Shown piece after piece: positions 20,387-59,397 of a DNA stretch of 64,000 bases. Below the pieces are notes generated by a model. It saw only the letters and a program-made list of their open reading frames with translations. It was not told where the DNA came from and ran no database searches. Within the stretch, counting starts at the first letter, position 1; the number at the start of each line of letters is the position of its first letter. The position numbers and the translations under genes were made by a program. This DNA is from Cirrosporium novae-zelandiae (taxonomy: Eukaryota): positions 1-64,000 of the forward strand of contig JAPETS010000034.1 in the NCBI GenBank assembly GCA_026023565.1, given 5' to 3'.

Positions 20387-20595
20387 TGGGTAGGAACGAG
20401 AGCGACCAACCCCAAAAAAGGATCTTGGGGAAGTCTTCAAATAAAATCAGTTTTTTTAAAAAAAAAAAAAAGTCGAGTTGAATTATAATCCTATTCAATT
20501 GCCTGAAGGCCTCCCCGGAATATATTTAAAAAACTTATTTCGCTTGAAGACCTCCCCAGTATCCTTCTTGGCTTGACTGCTTTCATTCCTACCCC
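20387..20595. mobile_element. MITE-like foldback element inside an NLR intron (intron 20331-20644)
   Basis: ~75-bp imperfect terminal inverted repeats: gggtaggaacgagagcgaccaa..aaggatcttggggaagtcttcaa..tttaaa versus tttaaa..ttgaagacctccccagtatcctt..gctttcattcctacccc; no coding capacity. Confidence 0.75.
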
Positions 20596-21236: not shown

Positions 21237-21489
21237 TGTTAGGGCATGCCAAGTATCACGTCTATGCGCTTATGAAGCGCTCGCTTGGCGCCTGAGTAAT
21301 CCTATAAAGAAGAACGCTACCCCACGTATTATGGGGGCAGCGTTCAACTTTTGCATCTACCTCAGAGGGCACTCCTAAAGCTATCATCATTTTGGCGTCT
21401 CGAATGCGAACCCTATAGTATTCTAGTTAGTTGTCCACTACCTAGATGGTTATCCTATCACACAGCCTGAATTAGGCGCTGCCCTTACA
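21237..21489. mobile_element. Solo LTR (253 bp) of an LTR retrotransposon
   Basis: Ends TGTTAGGGCA...TGCCCTTACA (TG..CA, 9/10 inverted); flanked by direct repeat CGTTT (21232-21236, 21490-21494); removing it restores the NB-ARC frame IIDV-SHMSNEDS. Confidence 0.92.
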
Positions 21490-23842
21490 CGTTTCTCATA
21501 TGAGTAATGAAGATTCTCTGAGTCTCATGAAGACTAGACTGTCGGATGATAAATACATCGAAACAGATGCATTGAAGCTTTTAAAGGAGTTAAGATACCT
21601 ACCTCTAGCGATAACCCATGCTAGTTCATATATCGACGTCAATAAGCACACTATGACTATATCCAAATATATTAGCTACCTTAAAAATGAAGCCAATCAG
21701 AAGCATCTTTTAACAAAGGAGCAAAGAGACTTGAGACGAGATAACGCCACGCCCAATGCCATTATTACAACGCTATCGATATCTTTCAAACAGATCCGTG
21801 ACCAGAATCCCAGAGCGGCCGAGGTGCTTTCTCTTATGAGTATTTTTGATCGACAAGGCATTCCGGAATTTCTTGTTCGAGATGACTAGGATGACCAAGA
21901 TGACCTCGAATTTGACGAAGCGATATCGATGTTGACCAACTTCTCACTCATTTACAAAGAATTAAGCGGTCAATCGTTCACAATGCATCGGCTGGTGCAA
22001 ATTGCGACTCGAAACTGGCTAGACGCAGAGAAAGAGCTCGAAACATGGAAAAGCAAGGCTGTTCGACGAATGGCACAAATATTTCCTTGGGAGCGTTGCG
22101 ATAACTGGAAGATATGTGACGCGTTATTTCCACACATGGATGCATTGCTAGATATGAAGTTTTCGGAAGAAGAAGATCTATTGAATGAAGCTACATGTTT
22201 ATATCGCACTGCGCGTTATCTGGATGGGAAAGGAAAGTATGATTTGGCTTTCCAAAAGATTCAGCGCGCAATAGGAATTAGACGCAAATTTTATAAAGAA
22301 GACGATAAAAACATGTTGGATTGTATCTCGCTCCAAAGCGTCATCCTAAGAGCCCAGGGTCAATACAAAGAGGCAGAGAAGGCAAGCCATCAAGCACTAG
22401 CCGGTTATCAGGAAATTCTACCTGAGGATCATCTAGAAATATTAAATGAGTCGTGTCAATTAGCAGAAATCCAAACGAAACTGGGCAATTACGAAGAAGC
22501 CGAACAAGGATTCCAGCAAGCACTAGCCAAGCAAAGGGAGATACTAGAGCCAGATAATGAGGACCTATTAATCAATATAAATAATCTGGCGTTACTGTAC
22601 GTGGACGTGGCCAAATATAAGGAAGCGGAAACTTTATATCAAGAGCAGCTAATTTTATACGAAAAGAAATTTGGACTGGAGCATCCGGAGACATTGACAT
22701 GTATTCACAACCTAGCCATGGTAATGTCTTATCAAAATAAATACGGGGAAGCCGTGACTATAACAAAATATGTGCTACATAAAAGGAAGAGAATGTTAGG
22801 GCCAGATCACCCAGACACATTGATCAGTGTCGGCCATTTAGCTATTTATTTGAGGAAACAAAATAAATATAAAGAAGCAGAAGAGCTGGATCGCCGAGCG
22901 CTTGCTGGATATGAAAAAACGCTGGGGTTAGAACACCCGGGTACATTAATCAGTGTCAATAACTTGGCCTTCGACCTAGCATACCAAAAGAACTGCGATG
23001 AAGCGATCCCGCTGTATGAAAGGGCCTTGGTGGCGCGCCGGAAAATACACGGGTCCAAGCATCCCGAGACAAAAATTGTGTTAGATAATTACTTAGACTT
23101 GCGAGAAGAGATGGAGGATGATGGGATCGAGCCGCCAGAGACTGATCTCCTGTCTCCGTTAGCTTCTTCAGAAGACGAAAGGGACTTGGCAGAGATAGGC
23201 ACCGGCGGCCGGGCTTCGGGTGCTGGGGAAGAAGGAGAAGAAGAAGAAAAAGAGGAAGAGGAAGAGGAAGAGGATGAGGTACGGACCAAAGAATCAGACT
23301 TGAAGAAAGCGTCCGATGCAGTCATCTCCCGATTTTTATCTTCTGAAGACGATGATGCATGGTCAATAAATGAGCTACTGGGAGACGAACCATCCGAAAC
23401 AGAGGGAAAAGCTACAGAATGAAGCAATGCACACGCCCATTAATATATATATCCCTTGGAGGCCCACACCATCGAACTACAAAATTACCACTTCCTCTTC
23501 GACCTTTATACGAGTTTAAAGAAAGTGGTTAACTGCAAAGGAAGAAAGAAAGAAACATACATTATACGGGTACAGTATGGTATTTGTATATAGTACATGT
23601 ACATTATTAGAGAACTAAGGATGTCTGAATCATATGGCAGAGACAAAAGTCGGTGGGGGAGTAATAGTTGGAAGGACCTTCATTAATTATTTCGAAGGGT
23701 CATGTTTACTCGTACATGTGTAGATATTAAGATATCAGTTAGATGTTGCTACGTTTAACATCAAGACATCTGAACGTTAACTATAAACTTTCTGCCGCCT
23801 TGATCCCTCTTCCTTCTAGCTAGATATTCCTTCTAGCTCTTC

Positions 23843-47017: not shown

Positions 47018-47371
47018 TTAATTTGGATGATATGCTTTGTACACTTGAATTGCCCCTTCGATGGACTGTATCAACCCAAATACAATGGTCAAAATCACAA
47101 CTAATGTTGCAACCCAGAACGTCGCCCATTGATTGGGCTTTCGTTTATCAAACCACAATTGCTGCCAGTTTCTGGGCTCCGACTCGTCGAATGCCCGTTT
47201 CAACACAATTATATCCTCTTTCCAAAAACCGAATTGATTAATATCGCGTTCTTGTAGTGTCAGTGTTTTGCAATTGGCCACTTTTGGATCCAAGCGGTTT
47301 TCGACTCTCTGCTTCTCGTACCATGATCGTGTCTTTCTATCATCTTGCGGGACTAGAAGAGAGATTGTCCT
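47018..47371 (-). pseudogene. 3' fragment of a fungal hypothetical membrane-protein gene (C-terminal hydrophobic segment)
   Basis: RTISLLVPQDD..W..LKRAFDESEPRNWQQLWFDKRKPNQWATFWVATLVVILTIVFGLIQSIEGAIQVYKAYHPN-stop; no ATG or 5' part, and it abuts an opposite-strand coding fragment. Confidence 0.65.
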
Positions 47372-49612
47372 CTGCTTACAATTTGCCAATTACTGGCTGG
47401 ATATTTGGGGATCATGCAAAAAGTCTTACCATTAGCGGTATTGTTATGGTCGACGGAAGGCCTTTTGGTCTCACAACAGCACATGGCCTTGAGAGCAATG
47501 ATGTAGCTGCTGTGGGTCATTTTGACGACAACAAATTGAGCGATACTGATTCGTCCACCGACACAAGCTCCAGCTCTGAGTGCTCTGAATCTTTACTAAC
47601 CCCTTTTAACCACGGAATGGACTATGATATTCAGTTCTCGACTCCTTGTGACTCTTTGGGGCCTCCTCCGTACGTGACTCTAGTACGATTTTAGACAAAC
47701 ATAGGCTAACACCCGACAGGACCGAGGACACTAGGGAAGAATTAGGGGAACTTGATCCTGCATTCTCTAGCCAAGAACAGGATTGGATGCTGATTAGTCT
47801 CAACCCTGATAAGTATTGGTGCAGTCCTTTCCCGCACAATGGCATAGCCGGCGTCTGTCCTTTTGCACACTTCTCGAGGTCAGCTTGAAGGTCGGTTATC
47901 TGCCAACCTGTCCTGGAATACAAACCTAGAGACTTGTAAAACAACAAAGCATTGGCCTGTATTCTTGTCGAACAGTGCTATATGTAGGTTTTTTTCAAGT
48001 ACAACCCTTGTCCATGAAAACCTTCTTTCTAACTCTCAGTAGTTGAGGGTGACTGCGGATCGCTTGTAACTGATGTTCTCACTAAGTCACTCTTCGGGAT
48101 GGTTGTGGCTGGCCATGCAGGGTCAAAAGTGGCATACATCTCATCAGCAAAAGAAGTTTTTGATGATATCAAGACAATCTGCGCTAGCAATGCTAAATTG
48201 ATCCATAGTCTAGATGAGTTGGAAACCCACCAAGGTAATGCAGAGACGCGATCTCAAAACGTATCCAAGCCATTGAAAAGTGATCTCTCGAGATCTACTC
48301 TGGCTCGTTCCATTGGCCACCTAAAGTCGGCGATTTTCAAGCGGGTCCAAATGATACTCTGGTAAATGACCCATCGTTACTAGATGTCTCTCTACTTAAA
48401 AATGAAGATTATCATCCCCAAAGCATACATTTAACAGACACGTGCATAGCTTTCGGATCAACAGGTCTCTCTTCAGAGGAAATTCCGTATTTTACACTAG
48501 AATCTAGAGTTCCTAAATTCCCTAAATCCTTCTTTAGCGAGGAAGTGTCCCATTTTGGGATATTACCTCATCTTTCAGAGCAGATGGAACCCTCGTATTC
48601 CATCGGTGGACTGATTCCAAATTTCGTTAACATCTCTCATGAATCCTATGTTCGGCCTACTCACCCTCGAGTCAAATGTCCCCATTATAATGAACACCCC
48701 GAGGGGTTCCGTGACGAACATGAACTTCGGCGCCATGTCGATCGCATGCATAAGACTGTTCGTAAAGTCTGGGTATGTGTCGACCAATCTACCGATAAAA
48801 CATTTCTCGCCAGTTGTATGGCTTTCCGCAACGGTAAAAAATATGGGTCATATTACAATGCAGCCGCACACCTTCGAAGAGCTCATTTCAACCCATTCAA
48901 ACGTGGCTTTGGTGACGAGAAGAGCGGAAAGAAAGATCCACCTTCGATGGATGCCCTAAAGGATTGGACGGAGGAGAGAGAAGAGTCGACGTTCAAGGGC
49001 TCTGATAACGAGGCTAATGTGCCAATGGATGATACTAAAGAACGAAAAGAAGCCGAAAATGAAGCCCATGTTCAAGAACCCTCATTCAATTCTCTCACCC
49101 TGGCCAATCCAGGATTGTTTTCAACAATGGAAATTAGTGAAGGAAGTCAGAATAAAGAAATCGACCATATGAGAACAGCTAAAGTATTAATAAGGGAGAA
49201 GAATGCAATTATAAACACAGAGGACGATCATGGGACAGAGGAAAACTTGGGAAATTTCTACCGAGTTGATAAAACATCGACTGGAGAAAGAACTCGTGCT
49301 TATAGCCCTAGATTATCAAGCACTTTGCACGTCGTTAATCTTCCCTCCGATGTTTCCGAGGATGAATCAAAGGCCCTTTTTTCAAAGCAGACTGGCTACA
49401 GGAGGTTGTGCTTTCGAATAAGAGTACATGGCCCAATATGCTTCGTCGAATTCGAGGAAATTTCACATGCCATTCAAGCCCTCAATAATCTGTATGGGCA
49501 CATGCTTCATAACGGCATCGAAGGCGGCATCCGTCTTAGTTTTGCAAAATCCCCCTCAGGGGAACAGGTTCTTCTCAGTTACCCACATTTCATACCGAAA
49601 TTCCTAGGGTAA
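47372..49612 (+). pseudogene. 5'-truncated chimeric gene: trypsin-fold protease + zinc-finger-like domain + Whi3/Scw1-like RRM
   Basis: TISGIVMVDGRPFGLTTAHG (His 47482), QDWMLISL (Asp 47781), VEGDCGSLV (48048-48062), FGMVVAG; introns 47670-47719 and 47984-48039; frameshifts ~47845 and within 48284-48365; then CPHYNEHPEGFRDEHELRRH..YNAAAHLRRAHF and TLHVVNLP..LFSKQTGYRRLCFR..GPICFVEFE..GGIRLSFAKSP. Confidence 0.72.
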
Positions 49613-49916
49613 AGACGCCGCCGCTGGTTGGGGCGAAGAGTGATTCTTTTACAGATTTATTATCTTCCCAACCAAACAAGGTCCCGGAATTCCCACACCG
49701 TGGGGTGTTTGTACCTCCAGAACTTTATGAACGAAATGATGCCGTAGCACGATTTTGGGACAGGAAACCCCGAGCCGAAAAAAGACCCATAGAAGAAGCT
49801 GCCTCGAAAGACGAAGACCATAAACCTCCCACATGGGTACAGTAAAACACTCCGAACCCATACCGAAATCCCTAGGGTAGAGACGTCGTTGGCTGGGATG
49901 AAGAGTACCATTTTAG
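49590..49916 (+). repeat. Imperfect ~55-bp direct repeat pair (~49590-49649 and ~49859-49916)
   Basis: cataccgaaattcctagggtaaagacgccgccgctggttggggcgaagagt versus cataccgaaatccctagggtagagacgtcgttggctgggatgaagagt. Confidence 0.75.
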
Positions 49917-50818
49917 GAATCAAAACAAATATAACGCCTATATTCTACTATCATAAAACGTCATATTAATCTATACGGATGGAAAAACAATCCTAGCCTT
50001 TCCACCTCCTCCAGTGAGTGGGACACGATCTTTCGAACAATTTTTACATACACCATGAAAGCGCGAGTCATTTGAGGGAAAATACAATTCATCCTCTCAT
50101 CATCATCACCACCTTTACCAACCAACCAACCATGATGATGATGATGATGATGATGATTCATTTTATGGTCCACATATCGCTAATAAGCTATGGTGGACAT
50201 AACCAACTAACCAAAAACTCGAGTACCTTACTTATATCAAGCAATCCTACGCTCTTTTTTTTCTCAACTAGCAAGCAAGCAGAGAGGTCCCCTCCCCGAA
50301 GGAGCTAAGCGGCTCACTTAAACAGAATCAACACAATCTCCCACACACACACACACACATCCATACATCCAGCTTTATATAAGCGTGGAATGCGCCTTGT
50401 AATGGATTCGACTCGACTCCCCACTTACGTACGGGCAGCTTTGGCAAAACCAACCCCCAACCCCCAACCCCCGCACACCACACACACCACACACACCTAG
50501 GGTGAGAGTTTTGAACATCTTGAATCTTGAATCGGATGTAGGCGATATTATTCTTGAGATCGATATGGGATGGAATGGGATTTCGGACTAGTTGGTTCTC
50601 CACAACAAAGCGGTTCGGCTTGGTTGGTCTAAGATATTCTTTTTAGAAGGGGGGGTTACTACCTATAAGCATAAACATTAATTAACCTAGAAAGATTTTG
50701 CAAGACTCTCGCCATATCTATATATATATATATATATATACAATAGCATAGCATAGCATAACCCCCCTTTTCTATCATTATTTCTCAGATCGAACTGATC
50801 TTTGATACTAAGACAAGG

Positions 50819-51424
50819 TTATAACGGTTATGATAACTTCTGAAGCAGTTAGTTTTCACATGGCTAATTAGCTATGACTAAAAAAACAACTAAATTTATT
50901 CAAGTAACAAATTATGCAGTTTATGTTGAATGAAAGCGACTAAATCTAGAAAAGTGACCTTCAAACAAAATCTTTTTTTTTTTAAATAAAATTTCGATTT
51001 GAAAGTCTCCCTGAAGTTCAAAAAGGTAAATAATCAGTTGCGGATAATTATGTGAAAACTGATTTTGTTTGAAAGGCCTCTCCAAGATCACTTTTCTGGG
51101 TCTTGGTCGCTTTCATTTTTATTTTTTAATTGAAAGGTATACGAAAGTAATGCACCATCAAACATGCGAACCCCCCTCGAACTAAGCTAAAAAAAACCAA
51201 ACTTCTCCAGGCAGGTAATAAATTATACAGTTTATGTTGAATGAAATCATATCTTTCACAGATAGGGCCATTATCCATTATTCTTTAGAAGAAGACCTGA
51301 ATGAATGTAGGCAGAACCAGCCAAATCAGAAGCTTATGAAATGAAATGGCTCGCTCTATTATATTTTCTTGGTATGGTATGGTTCCATGTGAAACCGCTT
51401 CGGAGGTTATCATAACAGTTATAA
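50819..51424. mobile_element. Non-autonomous inverted-repeat element containing a nested MITE
   Basis: Left ttataacggttatgataacttctgaagc..tttcacatgg (50819-50863) is the inverted counterpart of ccatgtgaaaccgcttcggaggttatcataacagttataa (51385-51424). Confidence 0.65.
50929..51117. mobile_element. MITE-like element related to the 20387-20595 copy
   Basis: Inverted ends aatgaaagcgactaaatctagaaaagtgacctt / aagatcacttttctgggtcttggtcgctttcatt; shares internal motifs with the other copies. Confidence 0.7.
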
Positions 51425-54400
51425 AACAAAACTCTAGCTAAGGTGCTTTGTTGGATGTAGCCAAGATTCCCTGACTGTCCTGGGAGTTATATTACCACCT
51501 CCTACCGAGTCAAAAGATACTGTGTAATTACCTACTTATGTACTAACCTTACTTCTCTCTCTGTAAGAATAAAATACTAGAACTAGCACTATAGAGGGAA
51601 AAAAAAGAGAGATTATAGGAAGAGAATGTGAGCTAATGTTCGAGCAATGATGAGATTACGTTTAGAGAGATGACGGAAGGAGGGGGTTGGGCTAATTTAA
51701 AGTAGCATACTGTTTGCGTTCTAGGATTCTAGCTAGAATATATAATCTAGAATGCCAGTGTAAGTCATCTGACCTTGGTTCATCACTATTTGGGGGGTCG
51801 GGGCAAACACTCACCGAGTTGTTGAGAGAAGCGAAGTTGAAGCATAGCATCGCAGGAAACAATAAACAACTTGCGAGTCCCTGCCTAAGCGAGTGAGATG
51901 ATGGTCCAGGAATAGAGTCCTTCAGACCCTCCCCCTATTGGTGAAAACTTAAAGTTCAAAAAAGAAGAAACGATAGAAAAATAGATAAAGAGATAAAGAG
52001 ATAAATAGATATCGCATGTCATGATAGAGAAGCGGAACAGATATAAGCCTCCGAAGCGTAACCTACGATGAATAGCATGTCATCGCGCACTCCGCAATAT
52101 CCATCTCATAGCCCGAATGCCTTTGTCAATCCTGACAGGTTCAAGCACCACCATGTCCAAGACGCAAAAAAGATGAAGTCGTCATCTTTCTCGGCTTGTT
52201 TTTGGTGGGCATCTGGCAAGCAGGGAGAAGCGATTCCTGGTCATCTGATTCACCTGGGAGGATTTCCTCAATGTGAATCTCGGATGATTCTTTCTCAAGA
52301 GCCATCCCGCCTTCCGCTTTGGTAGTCGTTTCTTCGTTTGCTGGATTGCTAGAGAGGACAAGGAATTTGGAATCTGGCAGTTTTTTGTCGGGCGCAAGAG
52401 GGTGATTATTGGTATTGGAAGGCATTTTCGGTTATAGAAGGGGTGTTGGTAGGGGGCGAAGAAAAAGCTAATGGGAGATATGTAAGCGAGGATATAACAG
52501 TAGACGGTAAAGATAAGGATTAGGGTTAAATTTTTCAATCGTCATAGCAGAGTGCAGAGCAGTGCAAAACGCAGAGCAGAGCAGGGCGCAATAGAGCTGA
52601 TTTCTAACCCTTCTTTGATTTCTGAGGTATGCAAGTTTGCGAAATCAGTGAAATTTCGATTTACGGCAGCGTTGGCTGGCGATTTCCCGGAATTCTTGGA
52701 CTTGTTATTCAAAAAGGTATCCAGGAGAGAGTAATGGAAGCTAGCTAGCGAGAATAAGAGAATTTGGGTTATTTTCTTCGGCTGCGGGGCAGGGCTGGGG
52801 AAGGCACATAGAAATACTTCATCATCGGCGAGACAACGAGCCTGTTTCTTTTTCCATGCCAAGTGGAAATTCCGACAACTGGTGCGATTTAGAATTCGTG
52901 GCATCGATGAGAGCACCTTGGCTCTCTTGGTCTATCTTGGCCGAGGTCAGAGGTTTGATTCTAGTTGTACAATGTACGATGAGATGGGATGAACTGAACA
53001 TTGGATGACGTTTTTTTTGTAGGTGTAGGCGCTCCTTGCGTACTCGGTTACGTTGCGGTGTAGTTGACCTAATGTGGTAATTAGACGATGCACTGGCTTA
53101 CACCGAGTGCATATTTCACTCGATCCATAACAAGAAATGTTTTGATCAACTCGGCCCAATTTTGATAATATCTTTGGAGATAGTGCTGTGGGAGTCAGAG
53201 CGTAATCTGGCCATGATCAATAAAAAAAGATGAAATGGGATAGTGAGATCTACGGGAAAGATGATCGATTGTCTTGGCTAGGTGGATCAACCTGTGTGAC
53301 CAAGATTGTGGAATTTCCCAATGTACTTAGCTAAGGTCATGGTGTGTCGTCCGTCCTTCCTAAATATTATGCTTACAGTAGTAGACAAATATACCAAAAC
53401 TTTAAGCATCGAGTACTTCCGAACCCTGCATTTGAAGGCGGTGGGAACCTCAAGGGCAGGAGGCGTCGGGAGGAGGGGGGGGGGAGGCTTGAGATCGACC
53501 TGGGAAGACAGCAGTGGCAGAGAATGGCGGATGGTAAAATGATATTGATTGTGCAACAAGCAATTGATATTCGCTAATGTTCGCTAATGCTCGCTACCCG
53601 CCGGCATCTCTTCAACTCCTATTCCATCTCAAAGAAAGAAAGAAAAAAAATTAGCTTTGTGTCTTGAAGCGGCAGGGCCTACAGATGAGTGTATTCAATG
53701 AATTCAATCCATCGACTGCGGTACGGCTGTGCCATCTCTCGAAAATTAAGACATTCTTTCCTCATGGCACGCCCCGAACTTGATGATTTGGACGGGACCT
53801 TGCTGCAGAGTTATCTCATGATCAGTGGTGACGAAAGTGGATCATGCTACAGGCGGCCAAAGATAACCTTGAAGCAGATCATCTACTAATAGCTTTTATC
53901 CAAAGGCTGAATAAATCTCCATCGAGTCCGAGGCTCCGGAGCTCTGGAGCTCTGGATCGCAGGCCGACTCTGGCCTTGTATCACCAAACAAGCATTAGCC
54001 GAATCATTGCAACGGTGATTTGCACCATCGATATTGAATATGAACGGTCAATTACATGTTTACAGTAGAAGAGGACGATAATATTGGCAATTAGCAGCAA
54101 ACAGAGCTTGCTAGGACTCGAGGCGAGATTCGGGTAGCACATAAGAAGAATGAAGCTAATACAAGGTATCAATACCTAAGACGGGGAAGCGCGATAGAGA
54201 AGAAAAAAACCATGAATACTAACCGGGGAATGTGGTTCCAAGGCTCCATGGTTTCGCCTAAGGAAGAAGACAAACAATATTCCATGATAGATTTCCAGGA
54301 ACCCGGTGACAAACAACGGTGAAAGATGTTTGTGTTCGGATGTGTGTGACATCCATCCGAGAGAGGAATCTAGAGGGCAGCAAGAGATTGCAGTATGCCG

Positions 54401-54528
54401 GCTGGAAAAGGCATCGATGGAGGATTTGAGGTAAAGAGATGCTTCTTCTCATCGGCACTTGGTACCTTCTACGCAGGTCTCAGAGGTGCTTTACCTGGTA
54501 CTTGGGTTAATGATGCTCCTGGAATCCC

Positions 54529-54604
54529 GGAACTGCTGGAACTGCTGGAACTGCTGGAACTCTTGGAACTCTTGGAACTCTTGGAACTCTTGGAACTCCT
54601 GGAA
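54529..54604. repeat. 9-bp minisatellite GGAACT(GCT/CTT/CCT) x8
   Basis: ggaactgct x3, ggaactctt x4, ggaactcct x1 read directly. Confidence 0.95.
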
Positions 54605-56417
54605 ATAAACTTAGGAAGTTGGGATGATTCGGTAACAGACAAACTGCACTACCGAAAGATGCGACCAATATCCTAATCAAGGCAGAGCTAATTGATTTTG
54701 ATTGATGGATAACGAGGGCATTGATACACACTCGAAGTTTAAAGCACGGAATGATGATAATCTATTTTTTTCTTCTTCTTTAAAAAAGTAATGTGACAGG
54801 CACACAAATAGGAAAAGAGAAAAGAAAGAGAGTCATTCGTAGAGAAATAGTTAGGCATCGGAAAGTATGGGAAGGAATAGACGGATGATTTGATAGTGTG
54901 TGATAAAGCCGATGCAAGATCCTAGATCCTAGTTCCTAGTTCCTAGTTCCTCAGTTCCCAGTTCCCCTCCCCCCTAGTTCTTCTCTTCCCTTCTTTTCGC
55001 TCATCCTTCCTTTACATACTCGTACTGTAGTATATTGAGGTTCACTTAGGCTTCGACCTTTCAAATAACCCGAAGAATATATAGAAGAAGCCCTTGTTAA
55101 TTCCAGGCACCCCCTTTTTTTTCTTTTTCTTTTCTTATTGCTTTGTATTATACATAGATGGTAGCACAGTACAGTAGGTTAAAATAATTAAATGCCAGGG
55201 GATTAAACTCATTCAGATTGATTGTGTGTTTGATGCAGCCTTAATGGACAATCAGGTAAAGTCACGGCGGCGCGGCATCTCATTCCGGCTAAGAAAAATG
55301 AACTAATAATCAAGATAGACTCTCTAGAGTTTGAGCGCTCCTTAGTCTAGTTAAAAAGCCAGTGTAATCACATATATCTATCTATACATACATACATACA
55401 CACACTTATACCTTACACACACACTTACACTTACACTTACTTACAATACGGACCCATGGTAACTGTATAATTTTAATAGTTAGTCAGTCTTTTTGTCAAT
55501 AGTACAAAGTGCTCCCTCTCTCTCTCTTCTCTCTCTCCCTCTCTTTATCAAATCCTCTCCTCCCCCCCCCCCAATTTACAAATCGGGTAATTCTGGATAT
55601 TCTAGCAACTCTGGTAGACCGGCTATACCTGGCAACACCTGGCAACACCTGGCAACACTTGGATGTCCGGAAACGCTCGTTCTGTCTTTTAACTGAAGTG
55701 GTTCAAATGTATTCACACATATTCTTCCCGGATCGCTACAGACCTTGCATGCGTATTTGCAGAGCTTCCCCGGTAGTCGGGAGAATGTCTGTCGATCAAG
55801 GGGTACCTTGCACGGTTGGGCCCTGGGACCTATGAAGGGAAAATCTGGCGGAAGCATGGGCTCTAACTTCAATCTGCTACTGCTTTCAATCCATTGAGTC
55901 CTAAAAGTCTTGCTCCTCGACCTACAATGCCTATTGCTGATCCTGGTATCCCAATCATCCGGCATCAGGGTTTAGGTGTCTCAAAGGTCACAGTTTAGTA
56001 TGCTTCCTTCAATAGACAAACACACTCTTCTTCGAGAAAATGATGCAGACGTTTCACAAACATATCGTACAGTACACCATGACCATCTCCTGTGGATGCA
56101 TCCTCCAATTCTATAAATCCACCACTTCCTCCCTTTGAATTGCTCCACCAACTTCATCATCGCCATCACCATTACAATCTTCACTCCAGCTTCTTTCTAG
56201 CTTCTTCATCTCCTTCTCGGGATTTCTTTGTTCACCAATTGAGCGCAATTGGCTATAATACCATCGCTCGATTTACTACCACTCCTCTCTAAGAAACAAC
56301 ATCATTTACAAAAGTCATTGATCCATCTACTTCCAACAGAACTCGAGTCTTTTCCTCCAGCCGGCTTAGAACTCGTTGACGTTTTTGTTGCTTCTACCAT
56401 CATTACCAACCACCATC

Positions 56418-56564
56418 ATGTGCCACAAACTTGTACACCAATATGCTTGTGGTCACACAGTTGTGGATGTTGCGCCGTGCGCGAAAAAGCAAGGCGGTGG
56501 AAGTTGCAAGGTCAACACACTTACTCAATCGCATGCTCAAAGATGCCCCAGCTGCCATGGCTAA
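56418..56564 (+). CDS. Small Cys/His-rich protein, 48 aa (MCHKLVHQYACGH..C..C..CPSCHG)
   Basis: ATG in good context (accatcATG), pyrimidine-rich leader, TATAAA at ~56112; MC-x6-Y-x-CGH..CxxC pattern typical of small fungal Cys-rich proteins. Confidence 0.7.
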   Translation: MCHKLVHQYACGHTVVDVAPCAKKQGGGSCKVNTLTQSHAQRCPSCHG

Positions 56565-59397
56565 GAGTAGGTTGGTCGATTCCATTCTCCCTGGCTTGTA
56601 ACTAGAGCTAATTGATATCAGATAACAATAATGTTCCTCACCACCTTGGAAGTCGCGGGTTTCCTTTCTGACCTTTCCTCAATACCCTTCGAGAGCCTTC
56701 GAATTGTACATCCACTTGTGCAGGCGCCGGATCACTTTCGTGGCAATTTACTTTAATAGACTGATTCCTCTTTGGATTGACATGAGAGGGAGGAAAAATA
56801 TGGATTTCATTTTCTGGTTGGAAAATGGCTTATGGCATGGATCTGGCAAGGAACCAGAGGATTTTGGCACTTCCAAGTCATTTCATGAATCTATGATGCG
56901 GTTGAGTTACGGTTAACAATAGTGGGGTACGGACAATTAATGGGGATTCTGTGACAACATTGGGTGGTTTTTGTGAAAAGACTTTTATAGGACAGCCCGG
57001 CAGTGCAGAGGTTGACCTGGCGAATTTATCGGGGTTTCTTGACTAGTTTTAATTTCGCTGGTGTTAGTTTTTTGAAAAGTGCTTCATTGGATCTGCTATT
57101 CCCTCAATATAATCAACTTTCTCAACTAGGTGTAAACTTCCAGAATCCCAGAATATGTCATGTCATGCAGATGGTAGCGGCGATACTCGGTCTTTGTCAC
57201 ACAAGCTTAATAGATGATATGCTGCAGCTTGAAATATGCTCTTGGAACATTCCTCATCATCATTTTTTTTAATCAATGGTTGATCTATCTGACTGCTCGG
57301 CAACAAATGGCAAGGGGATAGCTATAACGAAGTAATCTCATCTATCATGAGCTTAGGGTTTTTAAAAAAAGGTTTGTGGTGATTACACAGCATTTTTGGC
57401 AGTTTTACAGTGTATGGATTCAGTCTGCTGTGCAACAATTCGATGCTGCATTGATCTTCAAAGAGTCTGTCCTCGATGCAGTGGAGGGTAGGACAAGTTG
57501 CTGGTCATAACACATGACTAGTTCATCCGGAAAGAGATCCCCAGAGATCCCCGGTCGGAAGCATTCCATTTAAATGTAACAAAGTTTGCTCGACTCTTTT
57601 TTAGTGTAGGCTGAATTCAATCAACTAATGGCGTTAGTCCTTCGGGTGAAACATTCTTTATTTATTTACGTACCAAGTTACATCTGGTAGTTAAGTTGTA
57701 ACGATTCCAACTATTCCAACTACATATACCAGAAAACCTAAGCGAACCACTTATATCTTTTTTTTACCTTGTATTATTTGGTTTCAGCATTCGGATCAGT
57801 TGGTGTACCTGCTTAATTGCTTAACTGTTTGAAACTCTTCATTGCTTAATTACTTAATTGCTTGAAACTTATAACTGAGTTTATATCATTATATTCCATG
57901 ACGGCTCGGCCCGTCAAGGGGGGGGGGGGGGAAATCTTGATCAAATCCATTCTAGGATTAATTCACAGGTCTACAGGTCCACAGGTCCGGAGGCTGACAG
58001 CATATGCCCGCGGAAGCTGGGAACCGGATTTTGTATCTTGGATACCTGCATGATTAAATCCTCAAAGCTATTCTATCGCAGACGCCGCCCAAACAAGTCG
58101 TCTGTTCTCCCGCCGAGCTTGTCCGTCGCCTATTTCAGAAGAAATGTGTGTTTTCATTTTTTGGGACATCCCTTCTGATCAGATCTGACCTGGCCTTATT
58201 GTACTTCATCACTAAGACTTTATTTTTTATTTTTATTTATTTTTTGCCTTGCCGTGTGTTGAACTTGAACTCGTGTATTGAACTTTAACTTCACCTCGAT
58301 CAGACTTGCCGTGTTTATTTATTTATGGTGATCCGAATGGGCAATAAGTCAATCAACTTTTGTATGCGACAGCAATCAAGCCATCACTTTAGCTGGGAAA
58401 TCTCCCAGGAACATCCTTCTCGTTTCTACCGACATTTGGTAGACGAAGGTCCAGAGCCTCATCGACAATGGAGCCAAGTGCCAGGATCGACGAGCTAGTA
58501 AGGTTGATGCTCAAGGCAGACACTCTACCTTTGCAGAGATTCATCCGTTACTGATCGTGTTTGATGTCCAAGAGCAGTGCTCTAATGAGGGAACCTGCTC
58601 CCCGGGGGGGGGTTTAGTTGAAATATTTATTCAATACCCAAACTTTTGTATGGTGATCTAATTGTGGTCCCTTCCTTACATGCGTTTCCCCTCCTCCTCT
58701 CGAGTTCTATTCTCATTCCTTCCCCACTCAAGATGAGGTTTTCCCCTTCAACTATGCCCTTGATTATACTACCTCTCGTCTTGAATATTACTTCTTTGGA
58801 CTTTTCTAGGTTTAGCTTCTAGATTTGATTCATGGCTTTTCATATCATTGATTATCTATTAACTACACTGTTCGAAAAATCACCAAACCCACGAAATCGA
58901 GGAACTTGAGGTCCAGAGGTCAAATTTATAAGTCTGATGAGGGGTTCAACCCTGGTCGGGGGATCGGGGCCGACGGAGGTATTAATTTGAAAGACCTCAC
59001 CTTTTTTTTTTTTTGGATAGATGTAATTACTGGGCCAAAATAAGGACGAATTCTAGTAAATAGGTAAATAAGTCAATTGGTCAATTGAATTTTATTTTGT
59101 AAATTTCTTCTGAGTACTTGTAATAGCAGAGTTAGCTTATATAAGAGTCGGCAATAAGCCTCCCCGAAAGAGCGATGATCGGTGGTAAGTACACAAGGCT
59201 GACATCATCTTGTAGAGAGGATTCGTCGGAACGAGAACAACCTTGTACTCAAGGACAACTTGTAACCTCCTTCAATAACTTCCCATCATTCCTCAATGAT
59301 CATAATTCCACCAGCTCTGTTCATCAATTGATTGCTCTAACTGCTTTGGCCGTCACTATCAATTAATCCCATCTACCATCTCAAATCTCCCCTCATC

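Follow-up and report, generated by a model that had tools for sequence, protein, structure and literature searches.

A stretch of 64,000 nucleotides from the ascomycete Cirrosporium novae-zelandiae (assembly GCA_026023565.1, contig JAPETS010000034.1; the whole stretch is called the window below) carries a locus in which a broken protease gene of putative chymotrypsin fold runs into fragments of two regulators. The protease occupies 47323-48233 on the (+) strand and is followed by an open reading frame (ORF) of 442 codons at 48284-49612 (+), which carries the Pfam domains DUF7896 and RRM_1. A preliminary description of this DNA had reported protease motifs, two canonical introns and two C-terminal domains. 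Pfam, hidden Markov models (HMMs) and a reading of the splice sites found all of them in place.

The protease starts in frame 1 with exon 1 (47323-47669), which holds the beginning of the N-terminal barrel, the catalytic His and an acidic, Ser-rich insert. Its codon log-ratio is 0.229, on a scale where training genes score 0.21 +/- 0.09 and 123 control ORF pieces score 0.036 +/- 0.086, with 3% of the latter at 0.2 or above. Intron 1 (47670-47719, 50 nucleotides, GTACGT..ACAG, branch site GCTAAC) is canonical, and its junction is also used by the GenBank model of the locus. Exon 2 (47720-47855, frame 0, codon log-ratio 0.250) supplies the Asp within QDWMLISL, and its frame meets a stop at 47887-47889. 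Between 47846 and 47857, within the C-terminal barrel, the reading passes from frame 0 to frame 1. The resulting frame-1 piece (47857-47983) encodes strands of the C-terminal barrel (VLLHTSRGQLEGRL..) and ends at intron 2 (47984-48039, 56 nucleotides, GTAGGT..TCAG, branch site TCTAAC), which is also canonical and lies directly 5' of the exon 3 core (48040-48233, frame 0) with its GDCGS nucleophile elbow and C-terminal helix. The catalytic codons are those for His (TTAH) at 47482-47484, Asp (QDW) at 47781-47783 and Cys (GDCGS) at 48054-48056. Many metagenome ORF fragments of homologues start exactly at GDCGS, consistent with a conserved intron at the position of intron 2.

Once intron 2 is spliced out, the frame-1 piece joined to exon 3 aligns in one stretch to positions 225-313 of a protease domain HMM, which was made from 18 long members of the family (78.9 bits, E 2.7e-26). 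This alignment makes the first frame break a real frameshift. Across 47300-49700 the assembly is matched exactly, at a word depth of 340, by a Logan contig from the probable source run, which argues against an assembly slip at the frame breaks, although the run is no independent sample. When the full-length family HMM was compared with the 2628 six-frame pieces of the window, exon 3 ranked first (E 2e-23), and the His piece and the frame-1 piece ranked second and third, in colinear order. The His piece (..TISGIVMVDGRPFGLTTAHGLE..) aligns to positions 193-243 of the full-length HMM and 34-74 of the domain HMM, with a weak score of 5.1 bits; with the domain HMM, too, it and the frame-1 piece each came second or third among the 2628. 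A second break lies between 48234 and 48365, where frame 0, with its stop at 48363-48365, gives way to frame 2, whose open stretch begins at 48284. Either another frameshift or a weak GT-AG intron would account for it; intron candidates include 48235-48326 and 48362-48537, the latter being the choice made in GenBank. Thus, where two frameshifts had first been described, the one near 47850 is certain from the HMM alignment, and the other is either a frameshift or such an intron.

The best protein match of the tail ORF is P0001, 'MAG: hypothetical protein M1834_005641 [Cirrosporium novae-zelandiae]', of 625 aa. All 625 residues are pieces of this locus, and GenBank therefore already models the locus as a single gene. 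This model, M1834_005641, bridges both frame breaks by two doubtful introns, 47856-48042 and 48362-48537. The first of these (186 nucleotides) has a non-consensus donor, GTCCTT, omits the frame-1 piece and deletes 42 conserved codons of the C-terminal barrel; the second measures 176 nucleotides. The product of the model would have an incomplete C-terminal barrel. Since conserved barrel codons are removed, the deposited protein departs from what the alignment of the family supports. Although public, the gene model is undescribed, and the locus serves as a warning, its two frame breaks being masked in GenBank by invented introns.

An exhaustive phmmer search with exon 3 as query (107 residues) returned 34 proteins at E <= 1e-3. 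These were 31 true relatives, the locus itself and two spurious matches, P0126 (a coiled-coil repeat protein) and P0128 (a leucine-rich repeat protein), which matched just the non-protease tail of the query and were dropped. The same exon gave 36 matches with tblastn, at 30-59% identity. Within the family alignment (A1) the elbow G-D-x-G is invariant; it is GDCG in 27 of the 31 homologues and GDSG in the other four. The preliminary description had noted Cys where trypsin-like proteases have Ser; by this count, Cys belongs to the family as a whole and is neither a peculiarity of the Cirrosporium copy nor a sign of its decay. Where the locus has its Asp, the homologues have LDYA[LM]I or MDWAIF. 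The relatives belong to Xylariales (Xylaria, Ustulina, Nemania, Hypomontagnella, Whalleya and Pestalotiopsis), Sordariales (Diplogelasinospora and Copromyces) and Leotiomycetes (Leptodontidium and Cadophora), with further members in Talaromyces rugulosus and the lichen fungus Stereocaulon, and every named one is called 'hypothetical' or 'uncharacterized'. They have their own N-terminal domain (~110-190 residues) ahead of the protease, and the His is followed by a large acidic insert. Taken by sequence, they appear to form an undescribed protease family of filamentous ascomycetes, with a His-Asp-Cys triad (GDCG) and a long tail that often holds extra domains.

The protease pieces of the locus gave no Pfam match, even at E <= 10, and there is no Pfam model for the family. 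Among 39 family proteins scanned, none reached the Pfam cut-off for Trypsin, Nal1_C, NAL1_N or Peptidase_S64; weak Trypsin_2 matches were seen in three of them (E 0.0035-0.013). In the locus itself, Nal1_C, NAL1_N and Peptidase_S64 had no match at E <= 10, nor had they any at E <= 0.01 in the 39 family proteins. By sequence, the family lies outside the Trypsin, NAL1 and S64 Pfam families. A word-based search with residues 1-262 of P0001 against 3786 candidates of 343-1094 aa found P0001 itself only, and sequence searches of the PDB with P0001 and with the A1 profile found no protease, the sole row for A1 being a low-complexity rhodopsin at E 0.47. No published description of the protease family or of its domain capture was found in topical literature searches.

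As a stand-in for the broken locus, family member P0132 was modelled with AlphaFold2 from the 35-row alignment A1. The model has a mean predicted local distance difference test score (pLDDT) of 61.5, rising to ~90 over the C-terminal barrel. When it was compared with 48161 chains by VIA-align, all 50 of the 50 listed entries had the chymotrypsin fold, and most were proteases. NAPase was the best match (2oua_B, Z 11.7, root-mean-square deviation 2.8, 140 residues aligned); others were 5mrt_B (Z 11.6) and Deg1 (3qo6_A, Z 10.4). Rice NAL1 (8pn2_A, Z 9.8) gave the longest alignment, of 170 residues, and the 3C proteases of foot-and-mouth disease virus and senecavirus scored Z 8.3 and Z 8.2. The top rows of a Foldseek search were likewise all proteases of chymotrypsin fold, though weak (best E 1.3e-3), with norovirus proteases in the list, and leads from the ESM Atlas pointed to chymotrypsin-fold or NAL1-like proteases as well. 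The family is accordingly modelled as clan PA (chymotrypsin-fold), a clan whose fold is two six-stranded beta-barrels with the active site between them, with the order His-Asp-nucleophile, and the earlier proposal of a trypsin-fold protease with a Cys nucleophile agrees with this predicted fold and with the GDCGS motif. For the locus as it stands, clan PA would call for an uninterrupted frame over the whole domain, and this frame is interrupted by the frameshift in the C-terminal barrel.

Like the serine proteases of clan PA (alpha-lytic protease/NAPase, HtrA/Deg and rice NAL1), the family would combine a double beta-barrel with the His-Asp-nucleophile order. It differs from them in a nucleophile that is mostly Cys, in the acidic insert after His and in its own N-terminal domain. 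The viral 3C and 3C-like proteases of picornaviruses and caliciviruses also join a chymotrypsin fold to a Cys in a G-x-C-G elbow; in contrast to these, the family is cellular and intron-bearing, and its model is structurally nearer to bacterial and plant serine proteases. To our knowledge, the Cys families of clan PA in MEROPS are otherwise viral. Ser is retained in four members of the family. This indicates that the nucleophile switched between Ser and Cys within the family, rather than that the family came from a virus. With Cys in 27 and Ser in four of 31 members, the switch can be studied within this one family.

The tail ORF lies in frame 2, ends with a stop at 49610-49612 and has its first ATG only at 48584. 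It matched DUF7896 (PF25438) at E 1.4e-20 and 73.6 bits (cut-off 25), so the degenerate zinc-finger-like block of the preliminary description had been named correctly. The copy spans 48497-49042, with the Pfam match at 48761-48976, and derives from a KLAP1-type gene. ORF residues 72-253 have 59% identity over 191 aa to P0002 (M1834_004934) of the same species, which scored 213 bits against 163 bits for the next match. In a tree of the copy and 41 of the 119 listed DUF7896 homologues, picked by motif, the copy is sister to P0002 (support 95/83) and has a terminal branch of 0.39, compared with 0.078 for P0002 (~5x). Four Cys and four His, making up two C2H2-like sites, are invariant in 119 of 119 homologues. 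The copy keeps all four His and has lost the second Cys of both CxxC pairs (Y at 48686-48688 and F at 48824-48826), that is, two of the four invariant Cys. Of the 48 columns that are at least 95% conserved among the 119 homologues, P0002 keeps 48 and the copy 38. AlphaFold2 modelled the DUF7896 block of the ORF at pLDDT 85-95. The copied fragment corresponds to 191 of the 684 donor residues. Some DUF7896 members are named 'key lime pathogenicity protein' in their sources, and according to a passage in PMC12735693, crediting Chen et al. 2005, KLAP1 is a conserved, putative activator of transcription that Colletotrichum acutatum needs for pathogenicity. Our literature search found no paper on DUF7896. 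As a separate observation, P0034 (ENA metagenome, 723 aa) has an N-terminal protein-kinase domain and a DUF7896 block that sits on a short branch among ordinary members; DUF7896 thus occurs in another fusion, unless the P0034 gene model is a merge.

The second domain, at 49322-49561, matched RRM_1 (PF00076) at E 3.7e-6 and 27.1 bits (cut-off 20.7). ORF residues 347-426 are identical to the Whi3 protein of the same species (P0121) at 56 of 80 positions (70%), which agrees with the Whi3 type first proposed for this RRM; P0121 and its nearest relative from another source share 72 of 80. The branch of the copy measures 0.37 and that of P0121 0.028 (~13x), in a tree that is not resolved. RNP1 (GPICFVEF) is kept, whereas RNP2 has changed from LYVGNL to LHVVNL, with the aromatic Y replaced by H. 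Because just the 80-residue RRM is present, out of 608 residues in Whi3, the copy is not a Whi3 orthologue. Its best match in the PDB is MEC-8 (6dg0_A, E 1.4e-8), and a complex prediction that paired the copy with the RRM of Whi3 gave no answer (score 0.00). Neither Pfam nor the PDB had a match for the ORF's N-terminal extension or for the linker of ~90 residues between the two domains (49043-49321, pLDDT <50, codon log-ratio 0.251), and disorder is predicted for both. In VIA-align, the model of the 442-aa ORF reached at best Z 4.2, and a two-zinc-finger peptide (2drp_D) matched residues 126-202 at Z 3.5.

With P0002 and P0121 as best matches, both tail domains are copies taken from separate regulator genes of the same species. 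The preliminary description had expected such an origin, and the intact donors, M1834_004934 and whi3, are both found. Its word 'housekeeping' is loose for one gene of putative transcription activator type and one RNA-binding cell-cycle regulator. The copies still match the Pfam domains of their KLAP1-type and Whi3 donors, which are also their nearest relatives. They differ from the donors in being fragments only, with Cys losses in the one, a changed RNP2 in the other, and the lengthened branches.

The tails of the other family members were compared with that of the locus. A shared zinc module, LPCEF..CWFC..HIR.HF, occurs in 7 of the 31 relatives; the idea that it is a distant DUF7896 was rejected (hhalign probability 0.9%). 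Elsewhere the tail holds an F-box (P0139 and its cluster mate P0161), a Pkinase domain (P0148), a WD40 repeat (P0144) or a GATA finger (P0155), and P0138 has a Zap1-type C2H2 finger at 25.3 bits, under the Pfam cut-off of 27.2. P0155 gives the clearest example: it and P0154 are 70-80% identical in their flanks, between which P0155 has an insertion of ~330 residues that holds the GATA finger. P0155 and P0138 are JGI metagenome gene calls, which we take to be uninterrupted ORFs and therefore not merged models. No tail domain was recognised in 19 of the 31 relatives, many of which are fragments. A HET-like stretch suspected in P0143 had no Pfam match at E <= 1. The preliminary description had looked for protease homologues with differing C-terminal partners: unrelated domains are indeed seen, in a small sample whose commonest tail is one shared module. 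Such tails preserve a natural history of domain capture. At the Cirrosporium locus both donors are identified, and what became of the copies is visible in the lost metal ligands, the long open frame and the later frameshift.

Several features bear on whether the protease and the tail belong together. Frame 2 is open for 300 nucleotides upstream of the first ATG at 48584, and its codon log-ratio at 48284-48496 is 0.217, compared with 0.062 for the frame-0 tail. Similarity to the donor (BLAST to P0002) starts at ORF residue 72, ahead of the first Met at residue 101, and relatives of the protease normally have long tails. These observations indirectly favour protease and tail as one former coding unit, which would have been a single transcription unit. 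An alternative is that two unrelated neighbours, a dead protease pseudogene and an independent DUF7896-RRM gene with its own start (e.g. ATG 48584), were merged by GenBank. The stop of the protease frame 0 at 48363-48365 would fit this explanation, as would a GenBank model whose parts are joined by a 176-nucleotide intron and a non-consensus GTCCTT donor, and a tail ORF that is intact next to a protease that is broken. However, just ~220 nucleotides separate the protease stop from the first ATG, the 300 nucleotides ahead of this ATG are open and coding-like in frame 2, the donor similarity begins 5' of it, and family members usually have long tails holding extra domains. We therefore regard two independent neighbours as unlikely.

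At E <= 10, none of the window's 2628 six-frame pieces matched the N-terminal domain of the family (HMM 1-190). The absence of this domain, the protease frameshift and the loss of two of the four invariant DUF7896 Cys are signs of decay, as had been suspected from the start. The protease half is dead today, and the locus as read cannot make a whole protease. At most it would make a DUF7896-RRM protein with crippled metal sites, and it may be a pseudogene already; the intact 442-codon frame may itself be a recent relic. Divergence of the tail from its donors amounts to ~0.4 changes per residue, with 442 codons still open. In neutral simulations the whole ORF stayed open in 5.8%, 0.6% and 0.1% of runs at 0.05, 0.1 and 0.15 changes per base, and the two donor-derived blocks alone stayed open in 19%, 3.9% and 0.9%. 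Such an open frame is rare under neutrality, and we infer that selection therefore kept it for most of its history. Both copies evolved fast with the frame open, which points to a changed function and not to immediate death. The protease frameshift is probably recent.

Altogether, we read the locus as a decaying, lineage-specific domain-capture chimera, in which a GDCG protease scaffold was joined to duplicated fragments of two of the fungus's own regulators (probability about 0.6). The observed features from which this reading starts are the domains, their donors, the family, its fold, the breaks and the variable tails. The tail of the Cirrosporium protease copy would have gained a KLAP1-type double C2H2-like block and a Whi3 RRM, and both captured copies would then have diverged quickly, the frame remaining open. 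When intact, the protein could have been a His-Asp-Cys protease with a tail that chose what the protease met. The borrowed domains would have acted as a recognition handle, either tying the protease to partners of the donor proteins or presenting look-alikes of the donors. Later, with the N-terminal domain absent, a frameshift would have disabled the protease, while the DUF7896-RRM frame remained. Unlike the observed features, the single transcription unit, the handle function and this timing of the decay are inferences.

A number of points weigh against the chimera as we read it. Within the protease, the N-terminal barrel appears to resemble the family only weakly, the Asp was assigned from its motif, just by eye and with a regular expression, and the first 67 bases of the reading frame are overlapped by an antisense ORF (47018-47389). 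Joining protease to tail requires a frameshift or a poor intron, and a search of public sequencing runs found no RNA run containing the locus. As to the origin of the copies, the DUF7896 tree left out 78 of the listed homologues, and the RRM tree offers no resolution. The homologue set is small (31) and was gathered with a 107-residue query, and some of the fusions in it are automated NCBI fungal models, possibly merges of neighbouring genes. Past selection on the frame, finally, was deduced from the open-frame simulation.

Other functions can be imagined for a chimera of this kind. As the preliminary description had suggested, the protein could have been an integrated-decoy sensor, in which the borrowed domains mimic host regulators hit by parasite effectors, and binding or cleavage of the bait activates the protease as immune executor. 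Unrelated and variable tail domains across the protease relatives would suit such a sensor, and so would fast-evolving copies from regulators of the same genome. The DUF7896 copy has lost metal ligands, yet it keeps 38 of the 48 conserved positions; plant HMA integrated domains similarly have degenerate metal sites. However, Pfam searches of the frame pieces at 46.1-49.9 kb found no NB-ARC, NACHT or other signalling domain in the locus. There is also no known effector, partner or cell-death output for the family, the shared module that is its commonest tail (7 of 31) resembles a native partner and not a bait, and the Cirrosporium copy is broken. A passage of PMC12258605 discusses putative integrated decoys of fungal NLRs, most often zinc fingers, and this precedent speaks for the idea; on balance we hold a decoy sensor to be very unlikely.

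The protease could instead cleave itself in the manner of viral 3C proteases and free the zinc-finger/RRM tail as a payload, so that the protein would be a self-processing latent regulator. Ssy5 of yeast, a protease that activates zinc-finger factors by processing Stp1, is a precedent, and the predicted fold is common to the cis-acting viral 3C proteases. Most of the recognisable tails bind nucleic acid (GATA, the C2H2 types, LPCEF..CWFC, DUF7896 and RRM), but the F-box, kinase and WD40 tails are a misfit for a released DNA binder, the DUF7896 copy is without half its metal ligands, and no cleavage site is known. We give self-processing the same very low standing as the decoy. Sequence cannot decide between these functions; judged by it, a guide or handle would rank first, followed by bait and payload. 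In a wider form of the proposal, the family would repeatedly capture fragments of the cell's own regulators as baits or guides and so be the protease counterpart of NLR integrated decoys, and the Cirrosporium locus would be a member disabled only recently, which preserves two captures made one after the other; this we consider very unlikely. Should the tails prove to be baits or guides, these proteins would be a novel type of protein for surveillance or targeting in fungi. Otherwise, the locus still illustrates cleanly the birth and death of a chimeric gene.

The nearest parallels to the captured tail are the integrated decoys of plant NLRs and the non-canonical domains of fungal NLRs, in which a fragment of a host regulator is likewise fused to an executor-type protein and the partners are variable. 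In contrast to NLRs, the locus has neither a nucleotide-binding domain nor a repeat sensor domain, and the carrier is a protease. Our literature search for integrated decoys returned NLR work only. In the part of PMC12258605 that concerns Sordariales NLRs, zinc fingers and kinases are given as frequent extra domains.

The setting of the locus is ordinary gene-dense ascomycete DNA. The window holds genes for an ABC transporter, proline dehydrogenase, HMG-CoA reductase, a GH31 glycosidase and others. A passage in PMC6712537 places Cirrosporium in an isolated lineage of Leotiomyceta, the class Xylobotryomycetes. The tail of an NLR-like gene, with DUF7779 followed by TPR_10/TPR_12, lies at 21476-23422 (+), 24 kb upstream, and has no evident link to the locus. 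The antisense ORF at 47018-47389 (-) encodes 123 aa with a transmembrane-like hydrophobic C-terminus. Its codon log-ratio of 0.085-0.118 is ambiguous, it has a weak match to DUF6722 (E 0.0026, under the cut-off), and it may be another gene fragment. Over the ~10 kb downstream (49600-59300), none of 35 ORF pieces of at least 70 aa reached the Pfam gathering cut-off at E <= 0.01.

As for marks of transposition, no terminal inverted or direct repeats bracket the chimera. A 51-nucleotide direct repeat (49591-49641 and 49859-49906, 80% identity), the first copy of which spans the stop of the tail ORF, is a local duplication. About 1.2 kb downstream, at 50819-51424, lies an element resembling a miniature inverted-repeat transposable element. 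Its terminal inverted repeats of 32-45 nucleotides are 88% and 80% complementary and ~540 nucleotides apart, and it contains an internal direct repeat of 35 nucleotides. A 63-nucleotide piece of this element (51055-51117) recurs on the opposite strand at 20395-20454, with 82.5% identity.

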